From Promethearchaeota archaeon (GTDB taxonomy: Archaea; Asgardarchaeota; Lokiarchaeia; Sigyniarchaeales; Promethearchaeaceae), in NCBI GenBank assembly GCA_016933055.1, contig JAFGBS010000031.1, forward strand, positions 60,001 to 92,000: a DNA stretch of 32,000 bases. The letters run 5' to 3'. A model generated the notes under the pieces. That model saw nothing but the letters and a program-made list of their open reading frames with translations. It was not told the origin of the DNA and made no database searches. Of this stretch, positions 5,604-25,156 are shown one piece after another (within the stretch, counting starts at the first letter, position 1; each line of letters begins with the position of its first letter). Both the position numbers and the translations under genes were made by a program.

Positions 5604-6701
5604 ATGAAGCACGTATTTTTGTTTGAATATATATCTGGTGGGGGAATTAAGAATTCTTCAGAGTTTGAATTTTTAATCCCTGAAGGATTTAGTATGCTTT
5701 CCTCCCTGATAAAAGACTTTTCCCTATTTGGTATCCATATTCATACATTAATCGATGAAAGAATTGCGCCAAAATTCCTACAAACTCATTCAAACGAAAT
5801 AAAAAATCAAATAATTTCATATGTCATAATCCCAAAGGGAGAAGAAATTCAAAACCATCTGCAAAAAATAGTTACCAAAGTCGATTATGTTTTGTGTATT
5901 GCTCCCGAATTTTCTAATATTCTTTATAATTTAATCGCGTTTTTTGAAACATCCCTAAAATCGCACCAACTTCTTCTAAGTTTACCCTCATCTGCAATTT
6001 TATTATTTACTGATAAATTAATGACTGAATCGTTTTTACATTCATCAGGCTTTTGTGCCCCTCATTCTATAAAATTAGATTTGGAAACAGTTAAAAATAT
6101 TCCAAAATCAAAATCAGAATACATTATTAAACCCTTTGACGGTGTGGGCGCATCCGATACTTATTGTATCCCATCCGATCTAAGAAAAAATATCAGTTCA
6201 GTATTCGATGCAATCCAAAAACGTGCCCCACACCAACATTTTATTATCCAAAAGAAACAATCAGGCATTGCTCTTAGCGCTTTTATCGGTTGTCAAGATG
6301 GACAATTGTCTTTTCTAATCTTCAATACTCAGAACATAAAATACCATGAAATTGATCAACTATATCAAATACACCAATTAGAATATTCTGGTGGGAGCAC
6401 ACCTTATACTGATCTACCACCAGATATGGAAAAAATTATTAGGGATATCGCTACAGCAATAAGTTCTCAGTTCGATTTTACTGGTTTTTTCGGCCTAGAT
6501 TTTGTTTTTGATATATCCACGAATACTTACTCGATCGTCGATATTAATCCCCGCGTTACAACCCCCTACATAGCGATTTCAGAATTATTTCGCGAAAATC
6601 ATTCTAATATACTTGAATGTTTATTCGGAAAATTTAGTGGCAGATTAATTGGAAAAAAAGAATATGTAAAAACCGATCAGAGAGAAATCTCCCTAAATTG
6701 A
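5604..6701 (+). CDS. ATP-grasp ligase, MfnD (tyramine--L-glutamate ligase)-like
   Basis: N-terminal FLFEYISGGG...EGFSMLSSLIKDF, IAPEFSNIL, DKL, IKPFDGVG, YSGGSTP, GFFGLDF and VDINPRVTT; archaeal COG1821-type ATP-grasp pattern. Confidence 0.7.
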   Translation: MKHVFLFEYISGGGIKNSSEFEFLIPEGFSMLSSLIKDFSLFGIHIHTLIDERIAPKFLQTHSNEIKNQIISYVIIPKGEEIQNHLQKIVTKVDYVLCIAPEFSNILYNLIAFFETSLKSHQLLLSLPSSAILLFTDKLMTESFLHSSGFCAPHSIKLDLETVKNIPKSKSEYIIKPFDGVGASDTYCIPSDLRKNISSVFDAIQKRAPHQHFIIQKKQSGIALSAFIGCQDGQLSFLIFNTQNIKYHEIDQLYQIHQLEYSGGSTPYTDLPPDMEKIIRDIATAISSQFDFTGFFGLDFVFDISTNTYSIVDINPRVTTPYIAISELFRENHSNILECLFGKFSGRLIGKKEYVKTDQREISLN

Positions 6702-7580
6702 TGTGAATAATAATATATTAAAAGCAATATAATGAATTAAAAAAGTAATTAGAAGACTACGCTCGATTTTTATAAACTTCGTAACAATTTGAATATAGGA
6801 AATAAGTAAAATTGTCCAAATCTGAAAAACCACCATTATTATCTTTATTACAATTCCCTCCAAAAATATAGGGTTCACAAAGGCTAGAATGGTATGGATA
6901 ACCAAATAGATAATCATAGGGAATAATCCAAGAGAAAATGTTGCAACAAAACGGACAGTATTTTCAGTTTTTTTATACAGAAATCGACACAGTAATTCAG
7001 AAAATCCGATGACGAGTACTAATGAAATTAAAAATTTTGCTCCCAACCACAGGCGTATACCAATTGTTAAGTCGTCGTCGTGATAAGCTAGAAAGAAGAT
7101 ATAAGATGAGTTAATCCCCCCAATTACTATCAAAGTATAAAAAATCACAACAATCGCACTGGAAATAATCCACCCATAATGGATTTTATTATTAATTAAT
7201 TCAATCGCCCGTTTGGGAGCAAGATTGAAAATCTTGTTTAAAAAATTGGATACGGTTTTTTGTTCCTCAACTTTCACAGATTCCATTGAATCATAGTTCT
7301 TAATTAGAAAATCATACGCATGTTTACCAATTGTGGATAATATGTACTTCTTTTTCTGATCTTGAACCACTAAAGTCTTTAATACATCCAGATGATGATA
7401 CAAGGTCCCCGTACTTATATCTAAAGAGCGTTTAAACTGTGTGAAGGAGCCCTTGCCATTTTCCCCTATTAGACGGATAATACTCCTTCGAATTTCATGG
7501 TTTAGGGCATAATAAAAAGATTCCTCAAAATTTGGTGGGGGAGACTTTTCTTCGTTGTGGTTTTTTTTTTCTGGCTCCAT
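6693..7580 (-). CDS. Winged-HTH (ArsR-like) regulator fused to a 5-6 TM membrane domain (possibly Yip1-like)
   Basis: ALNHEIRRSIIRLIGENGKGSFTQFKRSLDISTGTLYHHLDVL is a wHTH; the C-terminal ~160 aa are hydrophobic helices. Confidence 0.7.
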   Translation of the reverse strand: MEPEKKNHNEEKSPPPNFEESFYYALNHEIRRSIIRLIGENGKGSFTQFKRSLDISTGTLYHHLDVLKTLVVQDQKKKYILSTIGKHAYDFLIKNYDSMESVKVEEQKTVSNFLNKIFNLAPKRAIELINNKIHYGWIISSAIVVIFYTLIVIGGINSSYIFFLAYHDDDLTIGIRLWLGAKFLISLVLVIGFSELLCRFLYKKTENTVRFVATFSLGLFPMIIYLVIHTILAFVNPIFLEGIVIKIIMVVFQIWTILLISYIQIVTKFIKIERSLLITFLIHYIAFNILLFTSI

Positions 7581-7597
7581 GGGTTCGTCTCCTTTCT

Positions 7598-8026
7598 TTA
7601 CACACCTTGATTGCTATCCTTACTCTCTTGTATAAGAAGCCAGAATAACGCCCAAAACAATAATGCGTATGCACTTATCCCAAGGAGTACTCCGTAATTA
7701 TAGGAATTTATCTGCACACCATTATTAGTGAACATTTCGATGAGGAATAATGTGTTTAAGCTTTGTGCGATAAATGCGATAATAGAAATAACTGCTCTCT
7801 TTAATTTGATTATCTGGTTGAGTAGAACTAATACAGCTAACACAATAATAATGCTTGAGGAAATTATCGGGAATAAATAGATAAATACTCGTTCTGTATC
7901 AATGCTATACAAATCCCATGGAGAATACATTTGATTGATCCATGGACTAAATTCTGAAATCATCATCACAATGGAACTAATAATGAAGAAGACACTTGTA
8001 GATACATTCTTCCAGAATTTCCTCAT
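7598..8026 (-). CDS. Hypothetical 4-TM membrane protein
   Basis: 142-aa ORF with four hydrophobic segments, co-oriented with and 17 bp upstream of the wHTH-TM gene. Confidence 0.65.
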   Translation of the reverse strand: MRKFWKNVSTSVFFIISSIVMMISEFSPWINQMYSPWDLYSIDTERVFIYLFPIISSSIIIVLAVLVLLNQIIKLKRAVISIIAFIAQSLNTLFLIEMFTNNGVQINSYNYGVLLGISAYALLFWALFWLLIQESKDSNQGV

Positions 8027-8152: not shown

Positions 8153-9109
8153 ATGGAAGCAGAAACTTTTACCATAACTGTCCCTGCCCGTATTTGCATT
8201 CTGGGTGACAAAGCCGATTTACTTGAAAAACCAGTGATTGCAGCTGCTGTAAATTTATTAATGAAAATCAGATTCACCAAAAGAAATGATACTTTCATAA
8301 TATTTCGAAGTGAAAATTTAGATTTCGCGAAACAATTCAGATTAACGGATAAGGCTGACTTTAATCACCCCTTAAAATATTGGAGTGCTATAGTAGAACG
8401 TTTAAAATCGGAGATAAACTCTGGATTTGAAGCTGTTGTAGATTCTCAGATCCCAATCGGTGGGGGATTATCCAGTTCCGCTGCTCTAAGTGTAGGTTTT
8501 CTCCGGGGATTATCAAAATTATTTTCTATCTCGATGAACCAAACCCAAATTGCTGAAATGGCATATATATGCGAGCATGATGATTTAGCAATCAGTTGTG
8601 GTAGAATGGATCAATACGCAATCACATTTGGCGGTGTGACATTTATTGAAACAGGTTCGAAACCCTCAGTGGAACGATTGTCAATCAAGTCACTTCCTTT
8701 AGTGGTGGGAAATTCTCAAGAGGAACGGAGGGCTGTGAATATTTTAAATCGGATTAAAAAAGAAATCCAAAATAACGTTCCAAGAGTAATCCAAACATTT
8801 CAGGAAATTGAACAAATTGTAGAAGTAGGGAAAAAAGCATTACTAAAAGGAGATTACGAAACCATCGGAGGCTTGATGACCCGTCAGCAACAGCTTGAAG
8901 ATATACTCGGAACCACTACACCCAAAATAAATCTTTTATGCCAAGAATCCATCAAAGCTGGTGCTTTCGGTGCAAAACAAATGGGTGCTGGTGGAGGAGG
9001 AGCTTTTGAAGCAGTCTGTCCCGGTAAGCAAGATCAAGTAAAAACTGCAATTGAGAAATATGGAGGTAAAACGTGGATTTGTGACATATATGAGTACAGT
9101 AGCGATTGA
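8153..9109 (+). CDS. GHMP-family kinase (galactokinase/mevalonate kinase superfamily), substrate uncertain
   Basis: PARICILGDKAD (motif I), IPIGGGLSSSAA (ATP loop), CGRMDQY and GAFGAKQMGAGGGG (motif III). Confidence 0.9.
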   Translation: MEAETFTITVPARICILGDKADLLEKPVIAAAVNLLMKIRFTKRNDTFIIFRSENLDFAKQFRLTDKADFNHPLKYWSAIVERLKSEINSGFEAVVDSQIPIGGGLSSSAALSVGFLRGLSKLFSISMNQTQIAEMAYICEHDDLAISCGRMDQYAITFGGVTFIETGSKPSVERLSIKSLPLVVGNSQEERRAVNILNRIKKEIQNNVPRVIQTFQEIEQIVEVGKKALLKGDYETIGGLMTRQQQLEDILGTTTPKINLLCQESIKAGAFGAKQMGAGGGGAFEAVCPGKQDQVKTAIEKYGGKTWICDIYEYSSD

Positions 9110-9219: not shown

Positions 9220-10104
9220 ATGCTGATATTAACATATTTCCATCCTGTTTTAGGTCCAGACATTCTTCTCACAGAACCCGAAGATATTCTTGACAACATA
9301 AATCCCAACCATCTGACTGAGATTAAAAATTTGTTAGATACTGCGGATCCAGGATTTTTCACCCATTTTTTCAGTACAGATTTAAGAACGGTGAATATGG
9401 TTTTCTCATTACCCTCACCTTGGGCGCGTGGTGGAGAAGAAATTGCTATGATATCAAAGATCATCCAAGAATCCGATCCCAATTTGGAATTATATGAAAC
9501 TCAATTCATTGAATTTATTACAAAAATCAAATCCGAAATATCGGATGTTTACATGGTATTTTATTTCCGAAAACCTCCTAAAAAAGCCTTACGGGATGAA
9601 ATAAAACAAAAATTAGAACAAATCAGTTACTTCTTTTCAGATTTATACAAGTCCTTAAAATTGATTCCTGTAGATACCTTTGGGGCTCTTATCCCGTTGA
9701 ACACCATTCTTAAAGAACAAACCATTCACATACCATCCAGATTCATTCATGAATTAGGTAAAGATTTAGACGGTACTGAAAAAAATTTTTTTGTAGTAAA
9801 TCAATATCGAGATAAGAAATTCAAGATTGAATTAATTCCGGTCAAATGTCAGAAGATTATAAAAATAAGTTTAATCTTAGGAAACACATTGAACCTCAAA
9901 GTAGTGCAAAAAATAAGCAATATTTTCTCTCAAAATAAACTCATTATAATATACACCTCTGGCATATGTATTCAATCAGGGGGAAATTGCATTTATGAAG
10001 TATATTTAGACGCGGACGCAATTTCGGATGTTGATCAACTGGTCAATCAGTTAAATCGTATTTCTGAAGTAAATAATATCAAAATTCGGAATATTGAGCT
10101 TTAA
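9220..10104 (+). CDS. uDENN/longin-like domain + AbrB-like hairpin + ACT domain fusion protein
   Basis: N-terminus LTYFHPVLGPDILLTEPED resembles the NPRL2/FLCN first strand. FSLPSPWARGGEEIAMI resembles the FLCN/SMCR8 ARG loop. TIHIPSRFIHELG is AbrB-like. Residues ~212-294 have ACT-type beta-alpha-beta-beta-alpha-beta patterning. Confidence 0.65.
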   Translation: MLILTYFHPVLGPDILLTEPEDILDNINPNHLTEIKNLLDTADPGFFTHFFSTDLRTVNMVFSLPSPWARGGEEIAMISKIIQESDPNLELYETQFIEFITKIKSEISDVYMVFYFRKPPKKALRDEIKQKLEQISYFFSDLYKSLKLIPVDTFGALIPLNTILKEQTIHIPSRFIHELGKDLDGTEKNFFVVNQYRDKKFKIELIPVKCQKIIKISLILGNTLNLKVVQKISNIFSQNKLIIIYTSGICIQSGGNCIYEVYLDADAISDVDQLVNQLNRISEVNNIKIRNIEL

Positions 10105-10176
10105 AATCAACAGAATCCTAATAATATTAAAATAGTAAAGAAACCCATCTATTGCTTAAGGTATCCAAATTCATTT

Positions 10177-10740
10177 TTGGAGGAAGCAACAATTTCTGAA
10201 ACCCAAAATATCTATAAATTTAAAATAACACTGTTTGGAACTTCAAACGTGGGGAAAACTTCTTTGATTTTACGATTTATCAACGATAGTTTTGTTAATG
10301 ATATAAAAAAGACAATAGGCACCAACTTTCTTATAAAGGATCTGCACGTTGATAACAAAAATATAAGATTACTCATCTGGGATATAGGAGGTCAAGCTCA
10401 ATTTTCAAATATGCGTAGTGTTTATTTCAAAGGTAGTAATGCAGCAATTGGTGTTTTTGACATCACCTCAACAGACAGTTTACTTAAAATTCCCAAATGG
10501 GTGATGTCAATTGAAAAATTAGGCTTGAAAATTCCCATGGTGTTGTTGGCAAATAAATATGATCTCGCTCCTGAACAACAAATAGTACAAGAAGAAGATA
10601 TAATAGAGCTTGCAGACCAATTGTCCAGCAAAATGGATAGAAAAATCGATTTTATGTACACGAGTGCCTTAAATGGATTAAATGTGGAAAACGTTTTTTT
10701 TAAAATCGCTCGAATGTGCCTAAGTAATTATTCGAAATAG
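10177..10740 (+). CDS. Rab-like small GTPase (Ras superfamily)
   Basis: G1 GTSNVGKTS, G2 TIGTNF, G3 WDIGGQ, G4 NKYD and G5 TSAL. TTG start. Confidence 0.95.
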   Translation: MEEATISETQNIYKFKITLFGTSNVGKTSLILRFINDSFVNDIKKTIGTNFLIKDLHVDNKNIRLLIWDIGGQAQFSNMRSVYFKGSNAAIGVFDITSTDSLLKIPKWVMSIEKLGLKIPMVLLANKYDLAPEQQIVQEEDIIELADQLSSKMDRKIDFMYTSALNGLNVENVFFKIARMCLSNYSK

Positions 10741-10798
10741 CACATTAATGTGTTGTTAGATTTGTTTATATGAATAACATAATCCATATCCATTTATT

Positions 10799-11782
10799 AT
10801 GGCATCAGTGTTGTTTATTGAAGAAGATGACATAGGATCTGCATGGGTTTCAGCATTGAAGGCTGTCCTATCCGAAGGGGATGATATTCATACTGAATAT
10901 GATACGGAAACCGATATTGCCGCAAAAGATAGTACCGCTCTGATTTCGGTCAAATATCCTTTTTCTAATCCTATCATCAATAAAAGAAGTAAGGAACATA
11001 AATCTCTCAAGGTAAGGTCGAAAGCAGGAAATTCTTATGAGGTGTTTGGACGGATTGAGGATATTTTCTTAATTGGATCCATTCAATCGAACTATATCGA
11101 GGAAGTACTCGAAGGAATTAACGATAAATTCATAGCGGAGTCAGCGAAAAGCTTTCCATATTCTTATCATGATCGAATTTTTTCCTATACACCTTTTGCT
11201 CTCGAAGATTCCCTTTTAAAGGACTATTCAATAACCTTGAGGAAAAATGAAGATGTAATTCATAATAATAAATTACATTTTCGTAAATCCATTCAACTGA
11301 CCGATGGGAACATGGTTTGGAAATTAAAAAACGGTACCGACTTAATTTTGGATAAAGAAATTGCAGAATACTATGGGATACAAGAATTACCTCTTAGCGT
11401 CTTAAATCTCCCAAAAATTAATCAAATTAACCAAATAATTGAAAAACTGCAAGGGAGTCCCAACACAAGAAGAGCTCAAGCAATTACATGGAGACCATAT
11501 TCTGATATCATTTCAGACGATCCTCCTTGCCTTCAACGTTTGTATTTTCGGATTAAAAATAAAAAACTCATGTTACAAACGACTTGGAGGAGTAGAGATT
11601 TATTTAAGGCATGGGAAGCAAATGTGAATGCGATGATTCGTATTCAAAAGTACGTTGCTGATGAATTACATGATGCCTTAGGTTTGGAAATCGGAGAGTA
11701 TGTTGATTTCAGCAATAGTTTGCATATTTATGGTCGTGATATAAAGGATGTAAAAGAAGTATTAGAGCAAATTGCTGGTTAA
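10799..11782 (+). CDS. thyA: Archaeal-type thymidylate synthase with a large insertion
   Basis: TRRAQAITW, catalytic PPCL, WRSRDLFKAWEANV and SNSLHIY motifs. Confidence 0.85.
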   Translation: MASVLFIEEDDIGSAWVSALKAVLSEGDDIHTEYDTETDIAAKDSTALISVKYPFSNPIINKRSKEHKSLKVRSKAGNSYEVFGRIEDIFLIGSIQSNYIEEVLEGINDKFIAESAKSFPYSYHDRIFSYTPFALEDSLLKDYSITLRKNEDVIHNNKLHFRKSIQLTDGNMVWKLKNGTDLILDKEIAEYYGIQELPLSVLNLPKINQINQIIEKLQGSPNTRRAQAITWRPYSDIISDDPPCLQRLYFRIKNKKLMLQTTWRSRDLFKAWEANVNAMIRIQKYVADELHDALGLEIGEYVDFSNSLHIYGRDIKDVKEVLEQIAG

Positions 11783-12429
11783 TCCATATATCCTTCGATC
11801 GGATGAAATCCATCTTTGGTTATTTTCACTATTTGGAAATTAAAACCCGAACCAGAGTCTCGAGTTATTGCGGATTTCAAAGCTCTTTTAACTAGGTCTA
11901 TAGCTTGTTTTTCTGTCAATTCTGGTTTCCATTCAGCTTCAATAACTCCTAAAGCATAAGGAGAACCAGATCCGTAGGATAAAAAGCTATCTTCTTCAAA
12001 TAAGGTTCCAACGAAATCAATTCCATATAGTTTACCCTTACTTTCTTCCTCGGAGAAACCCCCTATTATTAACAGGGCAAGATAATAACCTCGACCACTA
12101 TATACGATATTCCTAACTAAGTTTGCAATGTATTTTACAGAAGGAACCTTTCCTGTATCGATTTCCCGAATATTGGATAAGGCACGAATTTGATTAATAA
12201 CAAACTGGCAATCTGCTACGGAGCCGCTCATAGTAGCTGCTGAATACGTGTTTATTTTAAATAATTTTTGTGCTTGGGTTGATGCTATAAAGGTGCCAGC
12301 CGTAGCTTGACTTTCCGTAGCAATTATCACACCATCCTTATATTTAAGGCCAATAGTGGTTGTACCAGTTTTTATAATTTCAGATGGCATGGAGAGATTT
12401 GCGGAATCCTTTTTCGTTTCCATACTCAT
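11779..12429 (-). CDS. psmB: Proteasome beta subunit
   Basis: Propeptide followed by G|TTTIGLKYKDGVIIATESQATAG; KLFKI, SGSVADCQ, GSGSPYALG and RDSGSG. Confidence 0.97.
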   Translation of the reverse strand: MSMETKKDSANLSMPSEIIKTGTTTIGLKYKDGVIIATESQATAGTFIASTQAQKLFKINTYSAATMSGSVADCQFVINQIRALSNIREIDTGKVPSVKYIANLVRNIVYSGRGYYLALLIIGGFSEEESKGKLYGIDFVGTLFEEDSFLSYGSGSPYALGVIEAEWKPELTEKQAIDLVKRALKSAITRDSGSGFNFQIVKITKDGFHPIEGYMD

Positions 12430-18414: not shown

Positions 18415-20670
18415 TTATATTTCAAAAATTTCTTTCAGTAACAGATCATCATTAGCAAATGGGGTGCAATTCCCATCCCATTTTTTAAGAACATTCGTAT
18501 GCCGTTTTTCGAATTCCGTGACAAAAGTTTTCAACTTAGATCGAATTTCTGTTGTTTCGCGATCTGCAAAAATCGCCCCAAATACGTATTCTCCGTATTC
18601 AATTATCACTTTAGTATCTCCGTGATCGATGGTCCGTAGTAGATCTGCACTTTTTGTGGTTTCCTTTATGAACGAGGTTATAGCAGAGAACATTCCTGCA
18701 ACCAGACCGGGGTCTGCAGTAGAACTCTCTTTGAATTTATAGGAAAACACATCCCTTCCATCCTCATACATCGTATACATTGAGTCTAGTTCAGCCCGTT
18801 CGTTCGTAAAGCTGAATTCGGGTTCCCACCATACTAAATTTTTGCGACTTGTCATATATTTCAAGGTTACATACATCCGATCCTTTTCACCTACATCGTC
18901 AGGAAGCAAATCTGTAATTGTTTTTCCGTTTCGACATTCATACATGAGATGTTTTACTTCATCTCGCTCACCTTCTGAAGGACGATAGGTTTTGGGTATC
19001 GAAAGTAAATAATTAGATTGTTGACATTCCTCATACGTCGGTAGATAATTGATTTTTGCAAAGGTAATGTGATCTACAAATTTATCCCGTTTTACGGTTT
19101 TGGTAATAAAATTTTGCTGTACATAATGGAAAGTCAACCCTACAAAAATGAAAGCAAAGAAATAATGTGTATATTGGAATGGAATAGATAGCGCATATAA
19201 AATCATATTTGATTCTAATAAGGATGTTTCTACTAAAGCCGTCCTTGGCATTATCCAAAATCCAAACGCGTCTGTTCTCACTATTTTACTTGTGATCCAA
19301 TACGTGCTGTTGGGATCCCCAAAAAAAGGAAAAATATTGCCCCCTAACATACCTGCAAGAAGTTGGAACACTACTGCTTCCACGACTAAAAATGCCAAAA
19401 TTATTACACTGTTTATTAGTAACTTTTTATTTCGGCTGTAAGAAATCCCCACTATCATTCCAACACCTACAATAACTACCAGAACTCCCAGCGCTTGAAC
19501 TGCAGATAATCCCTCCAGTAATAATACAGTTAGAAATTGTGGTGGAGGACTTGCCTCAAATAAATTGCTAGCAATAATATCTTGAGGAGCTCGAATAGTA
19601 ATCATACCTTGAACAAATGATAAGAAAAATGCGAAAATAAAAATCGCTAATATACTTACTAAACCAAACATTGCTGATTGACCAAAATTTGCAGTATTTG
19701 GTCTTGTTGGCGTCTTTATTTCTTCTTTATGCTTAATCCCATTAATAATTTTGATGAGAATGAGGATTGCAATTGGTTCAAAAATAGCTACCGTTGATAC
19801 AAAGATGAATGCAGCCATGATATAATACGCAAAAAAATACAATACTAATGATAGGGATTGGAATGCCTCGCCTATACTCGCTGATCCTTGAAATGCCTCA
19901 ACAATGAACAGAAGAATACTCAAAATTGAAATGGGGGTTGCAACTGTCATCATGCTTGAATAAGTATCATTTTCTAGCTTTTCCCCAACAAATTTACCCT
20001 GGAATGATGCTTTACTGGCTTTAATTAGCTGAATTGCATACAAAAATGTTGCAATATAAATAAAAAAAATCTCAATGAACCATCCAAGACCACCATCTGC
20101 AGGATCTAATGCAGCAACGCCTGCTATCTTTAGAACTGTGACCAGTAAATATAACGTGATCGGTAAAAGAACTATCAAGGATCGGAATAATCGCATTTCT
20201 TCTCTAAGATTTCCTTTAGTCAAATTTTCAATGATTATCTCCTTAGGGCTTTTGTTATATTCAAAAGTTAACTGAGTTAACTGTATTTTAAATTTAGATT
20301 TATCCTCTTTTTTCAAGCGGAAAAACAGGTAGATTATCGCTATAAATGGTGCAAGCAAAAATATAAACGCTTGATTGATTAAGGGAATTTGGAAAAAATT
20401 GGCAACCACGTTGAATAATCTTGCGAAAAGATAAGCTACTCCTCGAGTAACATCATTCTCAGTGTTTATCACTAAAGTTAGAGGATCTCCAATTTGAAAT
20501 ATAACAGGCATTATAAAATACACTACAAAGAACAATGATATTCCCAATACCAATCGTGTATAAATTTTTTTGAAAATAGGTCGTTTACGAATAAAAAGTA
20601 TGGGTATCCAAATTAATCCAACTGGTAATAAATTGAATACGATTGTTATAAATACTTCTAAGAATGCCAT
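18415..20670 (-). CDS. Polytopic membrane protein with C-terminal longin domain
   Basis: About 12-14 hydrophobic helices over residues 1-520. The C-terminal ~125 aa (MYTMYEDGRDVF...DPGLVAGMFSAITSFIKE...WDGNCTPF) match the Asgard longin pattern. Confidence 0.75.
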   Translation of the reverse strand: MAFLEVFITIVFNLLPVGLIWIPILFIRKRPIFKKIYTRLVLGISLFFVVYFIMPVIFQIGDPLTLVINTENDVTRGVAYLFARLFNVVANFFQIPLINQAFIFLLAPFIAIIYLFFRLKKEDKSKFKIQLTQLTFEYNKSPKEIIIENLTKGNLREEMRLFRSLIVLLPITLYLLVTVLKIAGVAALDPADGGLGWFIEIFFIYIATFLYAIQLIKASKASFQGKFVGEKLENDTYSSMMTVATPISILSILLFIVEAFQGSASIGEAFQSLSLVLYFFAYYIMAAFIFVSTVAIFEPIAILILIKIINGIKHKEEIKTPTRPNTANFGQSAMFGLVSILAIFIFAFFLSFVQGMITIRAPQDIIASNLFEASPPPQFLTVLLLEGLSAVQALGVLVVIVGVGMIVGISYSRNKKLLINSVIILAFLVVEAVVFQLLAGMLGGNIFPFFGDPNSTYWITSKIVRTDAFGFWIMPRTALVETSLLESNMILYALSIPFQYTHYFFAFIFVGLTFHYVQQNFITKTVKRDKFVDHITFAKINYLPTYEECQQSNYLLSIPKTYRPSEGERDEVKHLMYECRNGKTITDLLPDDVGEKDRMYVTLKYMTSRKNLVWWEPEFSFTNERAELDSMYTMYEDGRDVFSYKFKESSTADPGLVAGMFSAITSFIKETTKSADLLRTIDHGDTKVIIEYGEYVFGAIFADRETTEIRSKLKTFVTEFEKRHTNVLKKWDGNCTPFANDDLLLKEIFEI

Positions 20671-24331: not shown

Positions 24332-25039
24332 CTAATCCAATTGTTTCTTAAACAATACTAATCCCATTTTTATAAAAGACTTGCATAGGCTGTAGACTCG
24401 GGTGAGGGGTACGTCAGTTTCATCTGCGATAGTTCCCAAATCTTTCACTCCATCAATTGCTTGGAACACTAATTTGGAATCATTACTGGAAAACAAGTCG
24501 TATATACCTCGTTCATATATCTTCTTAATTCTTTTATAGGGAACTAAACTCGCATCGAACTTGGAAATATTACCTCCGCTAAATTCTTGAGGATTTTCTA
24601 GACTATCTTTATGATGGATTATATTTTCTAAAATTGTTTCAAAATCCTTGAATATCTCGGTTTCTCCATCCCATTTGTTTTCCGTAATGAATGGAAATCG
24701 GCGGATAAACGCGGAACTAATTTTTTTTAACATAGCTTCAACCATAGTCCCTTCGATATCCTTTCCCTTGGATGCTCCTACAAATAACAGATTATGATCA
24801 TTTGGCGGTTTAAAAAACAAGAAACTTACATCTTCCATCTTCATTTCCTTCATATTTCCAAGGGCATCAACATTTTTTGCGAACGAGTTGATAGCTGATA
24901 AAAATCCTGATATCATCGTAATCTGGTCTTCATTTGGACGGCTATTGTCATATAAACATTCATTTCTAGTAAATATGGGAAGCCCGTTTTTTAAAATGAA
25001 CAAATCGTTTAACATCGGAGACACATTAGCTTTAGCCAT
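24332..25039 (-). CDS. Longin domain + C-terminal winged-helix protein
   Basis: Longin pattern LFILKNGLPIF...MISGFLSAINSFA...WDGETEIFKDF. The C-terminal IDGVKDLGTIADETDVPLTRVYSLCKSFIKMGLV is a wHTH. The start is placed at the ATG at 25039 (alternative 25015; track 25108). Confidence 0.75.
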   Translation of the reverse strand: MAKANVSPMLNDLFILKNGLPIFTRNECLYDNSRPNEDQITMISGFLSAINSFAKNVDALGNMKEMKMEDVSFLFFKPPNDHNLLFVGASKGKDIEGTMVEAMLKKISSAFIRRFPFITENKWDGETEIFKDFETILENIIHHKDSLENPQEFSGGNISKFDASLVPYKRIKKIYERGIYDLFSSNDSKLVFQAIDGVKDLGTIADETDVPLTRVYSLCKSFIKMGLVLFKKQLD

Positions 25040-25156
25040 CTCTTGTCGAATAATGAACACCTTAGAATCTAAATAAGTGAGTGTACTATCTTCATAACAC
25101 AGCTTCAAGAAAAAAAAGGTTAAGAAAAAGAAAATTAGAATTTCACAATTTGAGAA

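Follow-up and report, generated by a model that had tools for sequence, protein, structure and literature searches.

In the eukaryotic longin GTPase-activating proteins (GAPs), two longin domains cup the GTPase and one of them provides an arginine finger, which in GATOR1 is Arg78 of NPRL2 (PMC8213707). A GP motif at strand 2 together with the arginine finger constitutes the GAP-longin signature of SMCR8, C9orf72, FLCN, and NPRL2; this signature is reported to be lacking in non-GAP longins and to occur in a number of longins of Asgard archaea, for which the GP/Arg motifs and a suggested GAP activity have been published (PMC12290439). Liu et al. described NPRL2-like longins as an asCOG class that is abundant in the Loki and Thor lineages and is found fused to two-component signalling domains and GTPases (bioRxiv 10.1101/2020.10.19.343400), and the enrichment of Lokiarchaeum ossiferum in NPRL2-like longins has also been published. 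Tran et al. reported that, as a rule, the GTPase genes of MK-D1 do not share operons with longin genes, which makes partner prediction hard (PMC10933270). Here, we describe two neighbouring genes in a 32,000-nucleotide stretch of a Promethearchaeota archaeon (contig JAFGBS010000031.1, positions 60,001 to 92,000; hereafter the window). Gene A encodes a longin domain of the NPRL2/FLCN type with an AbrB-ACT-like tail, and gene B encodes a Rab-like small GTPase. We propose, with a probability of approximately 0.42, that gene A encodes a regulator built on a GAP-type longin and acting as a homodimer, that its likeliest client is the neighbouring Rab-like GTPase, and that its tail may couple its activity to a signal.

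Both open reading frames were found on the + strand 72 bp apart, as had been described in a first-pass annotation made from the sequence alone. The elements of the locus are listed below in window coordinates, with the basis of each assignment.

9220 to 10104, + strand: gene A, longin-AbrB-ACT-like fusion of 294 residues with an ATG start (P0001); open reading frame.
9220 to 9663, + strand: longin domain of the FLCN/NPRL2 type, residues 1–148, order β-β-α-β-β-β-α-α; model and fold match.
9253 to 9258, + strand: GP motif formed by Gly12-Pro13, where strand 2 begins; alignments and model.
9427 to 9432, + strand: Arg70-Gly71, candidate arginine finger in the β4-β5 loop (SPWARGGEE); alignments.
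9667 to 9849, + strand: AbrB/MazE (SpoVT)-like half-barrel, residues 150–210, with conserved I-P172 and I-P207; structure matches.
9850 to 10101, + strand: ACT-like domain, ferredoxin-like β-α-β-β-α-β, residues 211–294; fold match.
9961 to 10005, + strand: hairpin G248-x-C250...C257-x-x-E260-x-Y262 (C-x6-C flanking the β2-β3 turn); alignment and model.
10105 to 10176, no strand: AT-rich spacer of 72 bp between gene A and gene B; sequence.
10177 to 10740, + strand: gene B, Rab-like small GTPase of 187 residues with a TTG start (P0002); open reading frame and Pfam Ras.

We modelled gene A with AlphaFold using a 36-sequence alignment (predicted local distance difference test (pLDDT) score, 89.7). 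Residues 1–148 of the model showed a longin fold whose best matches (VIA-align) included FLCN (8dhb_J; Z 13.1, root-mean-square deviation (rmsd) 3.0, 137 residues aligned), NPRL2 (9o5a_H; Z 11.8, chain residues 9–141), and the solved structure of a Lokiarchaeal longin (8yqg_B; Z 11.7). Yeast Npr2 in SEAC was also among the best fold matches, and FLCN and NPRL2 outranked Mon1/Ccz1. These results indicate that the N-terminus is a longin domain of the NPRL2/FLCN type, as annotated. An exhaustive search gave 238 relatives. The source names attached to homologues (Lokiarchaeota and Promethearchaeota) put the organism in Lokiarchaeia. The sole sequence-level match of the gene A profile in the PDB was the N-terminus of NPRL2 (38 residues, E 0.14), and in the register with NPRL2 the residues F7, G12, P13, P20, E21, and D22 correspond to F15, G20, P21, P28, E29, and D30, respectively. 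The profile of the N-domain matched only coiled-coil noise among the PDB sequences. The Pfam scan assigned gene A to no family, with NPR2, Folliculin, and DENN absent even at E values up to 1, and neither Pfam nor NCBIfam yielded a family above threshold for gene A, the N-domain relatives, or the C-terminal module.

The only invariant columns in 41 diverse N-domains were F7, G12, N59, R70, and G71, and P13 was conserved in at least 90% of them. Arg70, previously singled out as a candidate arginine finger, was invariant in these domains and in 36 full-length homologues, GTPase-fused forms included, and it is accompanied by the GP motif. With the offset of 8, R70 would correspond to NPRL2 Arg78, assuming no indel between. 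The positions of the catalytic arginines compared for class membership were NPRL2 R78, FLCN R164, and SMCR8 R147, R70 being placed by sequence register only. Gene A shares with NPRL2, FLCN, and SMCR8 the longin fold (Z 11.8–13.1 to FLCN and NPRL2), the GP motif at strand 2, and, as placed by the sequence register, a conserved arginine in the same loop, and it resembles NPRL2 in its N-terminal sequence. It differs from these proteins in that it has an AbrB-ACT-like C-terminus instead of a DENN domain or the NPRL2 C-terminal domain. Furthermore, the eukaryotic proteins heterodimerise with NPRL3, FNIP, or C9orf72 and act on Rag or Arf, whereas gene A is probably homodimeric through its tail, to judge from the predicted fold, and its candidate client is Rab-like.

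A guanine nucleotide exchange factor (GEF) or platform role is the commonest among longin domains (PMC12290439), and the longin of gene A could accordingly be a non-catalytic platform or a GEF of the Mon1-Ccz1, TRAPP, or DENN type, with the C-terminal module serving for dimerisation only and binding no ligand. However, the GP motif and the invariant arginine, which would occupy the GAP-longin position, are reported to be missing from non-GAP longins, and the ranking of FLCN and NPRL2 before Mon1/Ccz1 points in the same direction. We regard this alternative as improbable.

We counted the domain architectures of this longin type among the 162 closest homologue clusters. The longin and AbrB-ACT architecture was found in approximately 45 clusters, and in 21 the longin directly preceded, in one chain, a small GTPase domain of the Arf-like kind; in many others it was followed by PAS, GAF, histidine-kinase, or TPR domains. 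The published fusions to two-component signalling domains and GTPases were recovered. The longin-GTPase fusions, in which R70 is also invariant, provide good evidence from domain fusion that longins of this type act on small GTPases. The longin domain of gene A probably binds and regulates a small GTPase.

The C-terminal module (residues 149–294) was modelled separately (pLDDT 93). Residues 150–210 showed the pattern x-I-P-x-x-helix followed by two strands, as in AbrB/MazE half-barrels. The only sequence link to the ACT families was NCBIfam NF006352 (PRK08577), which matched residues 167–293 of gene A with E 3.7e-7 (30.3 bits, well short of the cut-off of 140). The Atlas structure matches of the module were archaeal proteins of approximately 135 residues containing PF04014 (MazE/SpoVT-AbrB) and PF01842 (ACT), with TM scores of 0.65–0.70, and the AFDB matches were named 'AbrB family transcriptional regulator' and 'SpoVT-AbrB'. 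No PDB structure match covered residues 150–210. Residues 211–294 matched ACT domains with Z 10–12 (rmsd 1.5–2.5, 77–82 residues aligned), namely those of aspartate kinase, homoserine dehydrogenase, phosphoglycerate dehydrogenase (PGDH), IlvH/IlvN, and Rel, and the C-domain of NikR. Pfam ACT and MazE did not match any of 10 members of the module at E values up to 10, the profile of the module found nothing useful among the PDB sequences, and a word-index search for its short relatives returned fragments only. The earlier designation of the C-terminus as AbrB-ACT is correct for the fold and the architecture, which come from the structure matches and not from a Pfam sequence match. The archaeal AbrB/MazE and ACT proteins of NF006352/PRK08577 (approximately 135 residues), a family that is itself uncharacterised, have the same two-domain arrangement by structure; the module of gene A differs from them in being the tail of a longin protein and in having an invariant C-x6-C/E hairpin.

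Across 41 fused and stand-alone modules, G248, C250, C257, and E260 were invariant, Y262 was conserved in 93%, and P172 and P207 were conserved in at least 93%. One paralogue of the module was without the Cys pair. C250 closes one strand and C257 opens the next, with a six-residue turn between them, so the two should be cross-strand neighbours. The classical ligand site of ACT domains is the β1-α1 loop at the domain interface, and the consensus of the ACT-like domain contained no conserved Gly in this loop. The hairpin pattern appears unlike the classical amino-acid site of ACT domains, and its β2-β3 position is suggestive only. The Cys hairpin would fit no less well with a metal, redox, or thiol-directed site, for which NikR offers an analogy, or with a role in structure alone. 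In NikR, an ACT-like domain comes after a dimeric fold of the DNA-binding type, an order that the gene A tail is predicted to share, and the metal ligands of NikR lie on the equivalent β-hairpin. NikR has a ribbon-helix-helix fold and binds nickel through His/His/Cys, whereas the tail of gene A is AbrB-like and has Cys/Cys/Glu. Gating of the tail by a ligand or by redox state is doubtful. The first-pass annotation had proposed amino-acid sensing, which found no support: ACT families were not matched by sequence, Cys250, Cys257, and Glu260 as the invariant residues are on the β2-β3 hairpin, and the proposal was pure analogy. An amino acid as the specific ligand is very improbable. CASTOR1 is an ACT-type fold in the pathway controlling a longin GAP, and its likeness to gene A is by analogy only; CASTOR1 acts on GATOR2 as a protein in its own right, and no sequence relation between CASTOR1 and gene A was detected.

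These features of the tail also bear on the platform or GEF alternative described above. The lack of a sequence-level ACT signature and the paralogue without the Cys pair are consistent with a module used for dimerisation only, whereas the invariance of G248, C250, C257, and E260 in 41 modules argues for more than a structural role. Alternatively, gene A may be mainly a ligand-responsive transcription factor, with an AbrB-ACT module that, like NikR or AbrB-ACT proteins, binds DNA as well as a metabolite or metal, and with the longin as an input or protein-docking domain. The resemblance of the module to stand-alone archaeal AbrB family regulators and MazE and ACT proteins fits this function, as does the presence among the fold matches of NikR, with its DNA-binding ribbon and ACT-like metal domain. 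In family f3, moreover, a small ribbon-helix-helix (CopG) gene of approximately 100 residues precedes gene A in 18 loci (among L023–L042). However, the alignments showed no conserved basic residue in the AbrB-like segment, where P172 and P207 alone are conserved, and the Cys hairpin and the catalytic motifs of the longin are the most strongly conserved parts. In addition, no conserved target operon was seen and the neighbours vary between families. A primary role in transcription is therefore judged to be quite improbable.

A paralogous split form of gene A is encoded on another contig (C6) of the same genome. L008:1489–2766 (+) encodes a 425-residue protein composed of a GAP-type longin and a C-terminal part of approximately 280 residues, and L008:2756–3199 (+), whose start overlaps the stop of the 425-residue longin gene, encodes a stand-alone AbrB-ACT protein of 147 residues with the same Cys hairpin. 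The split pair was adjacent only in G000, G131, and G143, and no such adjacency was seen in the other 11 f1 genomes or in 14 sampled genomes of other genera. The adjacency in three genomes only gives weak Rosetta-stone support. The orthologue of gene A in G172 (L077, G172:C151:1689–2681) was split into two open reading frames by in-frame stops, as a result of either pseudogenisation or faulty assembly.

Gene B matched Pfam Ras with E 2e-40, and the top 60 matches of the PDB sequence search were all Rabs, with Ypt1 first (2e-31), followed by Rab1, Rab6, and Rab8A. The motifs G1–G5 were complete (G21/K27/T28, T46, D69..Q73, N126-K127-x-D129, and S163-A164), and these motifs and the switch-II Gln were invariant or nearly so in 31 orthologues. 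These results indicate that gene B is a complete Rab-like GTPase, in agreement with the annotation. The orthologues are named Rab family GTPase by NCBI, and relatives with approximately 57% identity are labelled Thor-, Odin-, Hermod-, and Hodarchaeota. Gene B is similar to Rab1/Ypt1, Rab6, Rab8A, and Asgard Rab (e.g., Thor-Rab, PMC10933270) in its sequence, G1–G5 motifs, and catalytic Gln. It differs from them in the absence of a C-terminal Cys prenylation motif, none of CC, CXC, and CAAX being found in gene B (which ends ...ARMCLSNYSK) or in its orthologues, and the clade of the window has a 6-residue insertion. The TTG start overlaps GGAGG (10177–10183), and the N-terminal L/M-E-x-x-x-I-S that is kept in the orthologues supports this start or one at a codon nearby.

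We surveyed the synteny of the two genes in 154 species genomes of the order. The full-length fusion was found in approximately 40 genomes (12 of 13 in f1, together with f2, f4, and part of f3) but not in g19 or g20, which with 54 and 42 genomes, respectively, are the largest genera. In the f1 genomes with both genes, the GTPase was downstream of gene A on the same strand and within 10 kb in 12 of 12 cases. The spacing of the pair in f1 was as follows.

Adjacent: G000, G131, G143, and G137, and 2 further contigs of metagenome-assembled genomes.
Gap of 1.5–1.85 kb: G132, G133, G135, G136, G139, G140, G141, and G142, with the helix-turn-helix (HTH)-membrane gene and the small-membrane gene in between, on the opposite strand.
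Gap of 9.7 kb: G134.

The GTPases beside gene A in the window, L001, L005, G143, and G137 formed one clade (100/99 support), and this clade excluded the 30 further small GTPases from the genome of the window that were included in the tree. In the gene A tree, adjacency was found in both f1 subclades. G137 is taken to be Candidatus Lokiarchaeum ossiferum, since its GTPase is identical to P0207, a protein named by NCBI, and the pair is adjacent in this genome though both flanks differ from those of the window. The expected synteny in relatives held within f1 and failed in f2–f4, where the genes are unlinked; in two close metagenomic relatives, the GTPase gene is absent from the locus. No terminator-like hairpin was found by a scan of the + strand of the spacer. 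A sigma-70 promoter scan of the locus gave nothing above shuffled sequences, the sigma-70 model not being applicable to archaea.

In genus g9, a different GTPase paralogue is encoded directly downstream of gene A, and in G280 a distant GTPase gene is convergent to gene A. The adjacent GTPases of g9 were considered as gene B orthologues and rejected, since they belong to another clade and the true orthologue is elsewhere in the g9 genomes. Small GTPases make up roughly 1–2% of the genes, so two to three independent juxtapositions in a handful of neighbourhood types are unlikely by chance (approximately 1e-3 to 1e-2 by a rough estimate).

The folds, the motifs and their conservation, the longin-GTPase fusions, and the f1 linkage were observed, and the features of gene A and gene B are far beyond chance, whereas we infer that gene A dimerises, that it is a GAP, which client it has, and that a ligand may gate it. 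AbrB half-barrels and ACT domains usually pair between chains and are dimerisation modules. The AbrB-like half-barrel and the ACT-like domain, being folds that pair, would make gene A a homodimer, and the dimer would unite two longin domains into the cup that the eukaryotic longin GAPs form heterodimerically. Given the two-longin pocket of these GAPs and the pairing folds of the tail, a homodimer is the simplest reading. The catalytic pocket would consist of the GP motif and Arg70, and Arg70 would enter the nucleotide site of the GTP-bound GTPase, the likeliest client in this lineage being the Rab-like GTPase encoded 72 bp downstream. The C-terminal module may couple this activity to a signal, for which Cys250, Cys257, and Glu260 suggest a metal, redox, or thiol-reactive ligand and not an amino acid. 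A prediction of the 1:1 complex (longin residues 1–150 with GTP, Mg, and the GTPase, using alignments) gave a score of 0.00 and no model, which is evidence neither for nor against binding; as the eukaryotic longin GAPs use two longin domains, 1:1 may be the wrong stoichiometry. The physiological client in this lineage is tentatively taken to be the neighbouring Rab-like GTPase, at somewhat less than even odds. A more ambitious version, in which the locus is a self-contained prokaryotic counterpart of GATOR1/folliculin, with a homodimeric GAP whose tail senses metal, redox state, or a metabolite at its Cys-Cys-Glu site and gates Arg70-dependent hydrolysis on a pan-Asgard Rab-like GTPase, so that sensor, GAP, and client would be genomic neighbours (in Ca. 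L. ossiferum too), seems rather improbable.

Several observations weigh against the proposed regulator and its client. At the sequence level, the links of gene A to NPRL2 (E 0.14) and to the ACT and AbrB families are weak or absent. Ribosomal protein S6 scored equal to the ACT domains against residues 211–294, which means that this match shows the fold only. The GTPase domains fused to the longin type of gene A are Arf-like, not Rab-like. The gene B orthologue, which is single-copy and 51–64% identical, was present in 133 of the 154 genomes, far more than the approximately 40 with the fusion, which rules out gene A as a general GAP of this GTPase. Two opposite-strand genes lie between gene A and the GTPase in 7 f1 genomes, so co-transcription of the pair is not conserved, and in approximately 25 genomes outside f1 (f2–f4) they lie on separate contigs or at a distance of megabases. 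Finally, two close metagenomic relatives (L002 and L004; gene A 80% and 76% identical) have an intact gene A and no GTPase gene at the locus.

The deletion in these relatives was compared with the window, with which L002 and L004 are otherwise collinear across 20 kb. In L002, the stop codon of gene A directly precedes the sequence that is found after the GTPase stop codon in the window. The gaps compared were L002:4883–4941 and L004:4814–4987 against window 10741–10798, and the thyA upstream element (..TTAAYRYRTTGTTAG..) is retained. Several assemblies have contigs with their first or last base exactly at the junction of gene A and the GTPase (G131 C94/C89 and the contigs carrying P0174 and P0166). 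The contig breaks at the junction and the lack of the GTPase at this locus in relatives are consistent with a presence/absence polymorphism (indel) in the population.

These observations can also be explained if the GAP-type longin of gene A regulates another GTPase, such as an Arf-like or Rag-like one, and its proximity to gene B in f1 is inherited gene order only. Every direct fusion of the longin type is to an Arf-like GTPase domain, and C9orf72-SMCR8 favours ARF approximately tenfold over RAB8A. The absence of linkage outside f1, the deletion of the GTPase from the locus of close relatives that retain gene A, and the much wider distribution of gene B are all in line with a different client, as are the MK-D1 GTPases generally found outside longin-gene operons (PMC10933270). 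On the other hand, the linkage in f1 outlasts several local rearrangements and holds where both flanks differ, and in g9 a second GTPase paralogue has independently come to lie downstream of gene A, two juxtapositions that are presumably not due to chance. Another GTPase as the client is unlikely on this evidence, and we retain the neighbouring Rab-like GTPase as the candidate client.

A prokaryotic parallel is MglA-MglB of Myxococcus, in which the GTPase and a Roadblock-fold GAP are encoded in one operon. Both systems place a prokaryotic small GTPase beside a member of the Roadblock/longin superfamily that is a dimeric regulator in Myxococcus and a putative one here. They differ in that MglB has neither an arginine finger nor a sensor tail and MglA is not Rab-like.

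The first-pass annotation had suspected that the fusion and the pairing were undescribed. In the literature searched, which did not extend to the asCOG supplementary tables, we found no paper on Asgard archaea in which a longin is joined to ACT or AbrB and none that reports the f1 linkage of the fusion to one Rab-like GTPase. This part of the claim appears to stand, whereas the NPRL2-like Asgard longins, the sensor and GTPase fusions, and the GP/Arg motifs had been published. The longin of gene A is of the same domain type as these Asgard proteins (bioRxiv 10.1101/2020.10.19.343400; PMC12290439), and gene A adds to them the AbrB-ACT-like tail and the f1 linkage to one Rab-like GTPase. The finding is a new architecture of a known longin class and a candidate regulator-client pair; it is no new kind of system.

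Whether the GAP-type longins of Asgard archaea are GAPs, and for which GTPases, is a question raised in PMC12290439, and the genome layout rarely pairs GTPases with regulators (PMC10933270). The present locus nominates one specific pair, with Arg70 as the candidate catalytic residue and Cys250/Cys257 as the candidate regulatory site, and the same adjacency exists in the cultivated Lokiarchaeon Ca. L. ossiferum. If the GAP activity is true, longin-based control of GTPases predates eukaryotes; if gating by the tail is also true, a longin GAP can be joined to a sensor in one polypeptide, and the two together would bear on the origins of Rag/Arf/Rab regulation and nutrient signalling. Otherwise, gene A is one more member of the known NPRL2-like longin expansion in Lokiarchaeia.

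The window has a GC content of approximately 0.34, and the genes flanking the pair are as follows.

6693 to 7580, - strand: HTH (ArsR-like) and multi-pass membrane protein, upstream of gene A.
7598 to 8026, - strand: small membrane protein of 142 residues, upstream of gene A.
8153 to 9109, + strand: GHMP/mevalonate-kinase-like gene; library scan.
10799 to 11782, + strand: thymidylate synthase of the methanogen type, 327 residues; NCBIfam.
11779 to 12429, - strand: proteasome beta subunit; library scan.

The HTH-membrane and 142-residue membrane genes (6693–8026) stand divergent beside the gene B orthologue in G142 (f1) and G148 (f3), and they may be more widely kept neighbours of this GTPase. 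The neighbourhood of gene A in f3 is wholly unlike that of the window, and a protein of approximately 430 residues with a weak HIT-domain match follows gene A in 14 loci. The GHMP kinase scored 153.6 against TIGR00549, slightly short of the mevalonate-kinase cut-off of 163.05, which makes its substrate assignment uncertain. The thymidylate synthase scored 145.8, under the equivalog cut-off of 174.55. The NCBIfam methanogen-type model has 201 positions and covers residues 6–317, which implies an insertion of approximately 110 residues in the N-terminal half.

Two further proteins of the window had been annotated as longins. The 258-residue protein at 24332–25108 (-), called NPRL2-like, had no match to the GAP-longin profile; its Atlas structure matches were a longin of the Fuz/Mon1 type (GEF-type) followed by a weak TrmB/IclR-like winged helix. 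The 751-residue polytopic membrane protein at 18415–20670 (-), to which a C-terminal longin had been ascribed, matched neither Pfam nor the profile of the gene A N-domain, and its position is kept in the close relative L080 (747 residues).

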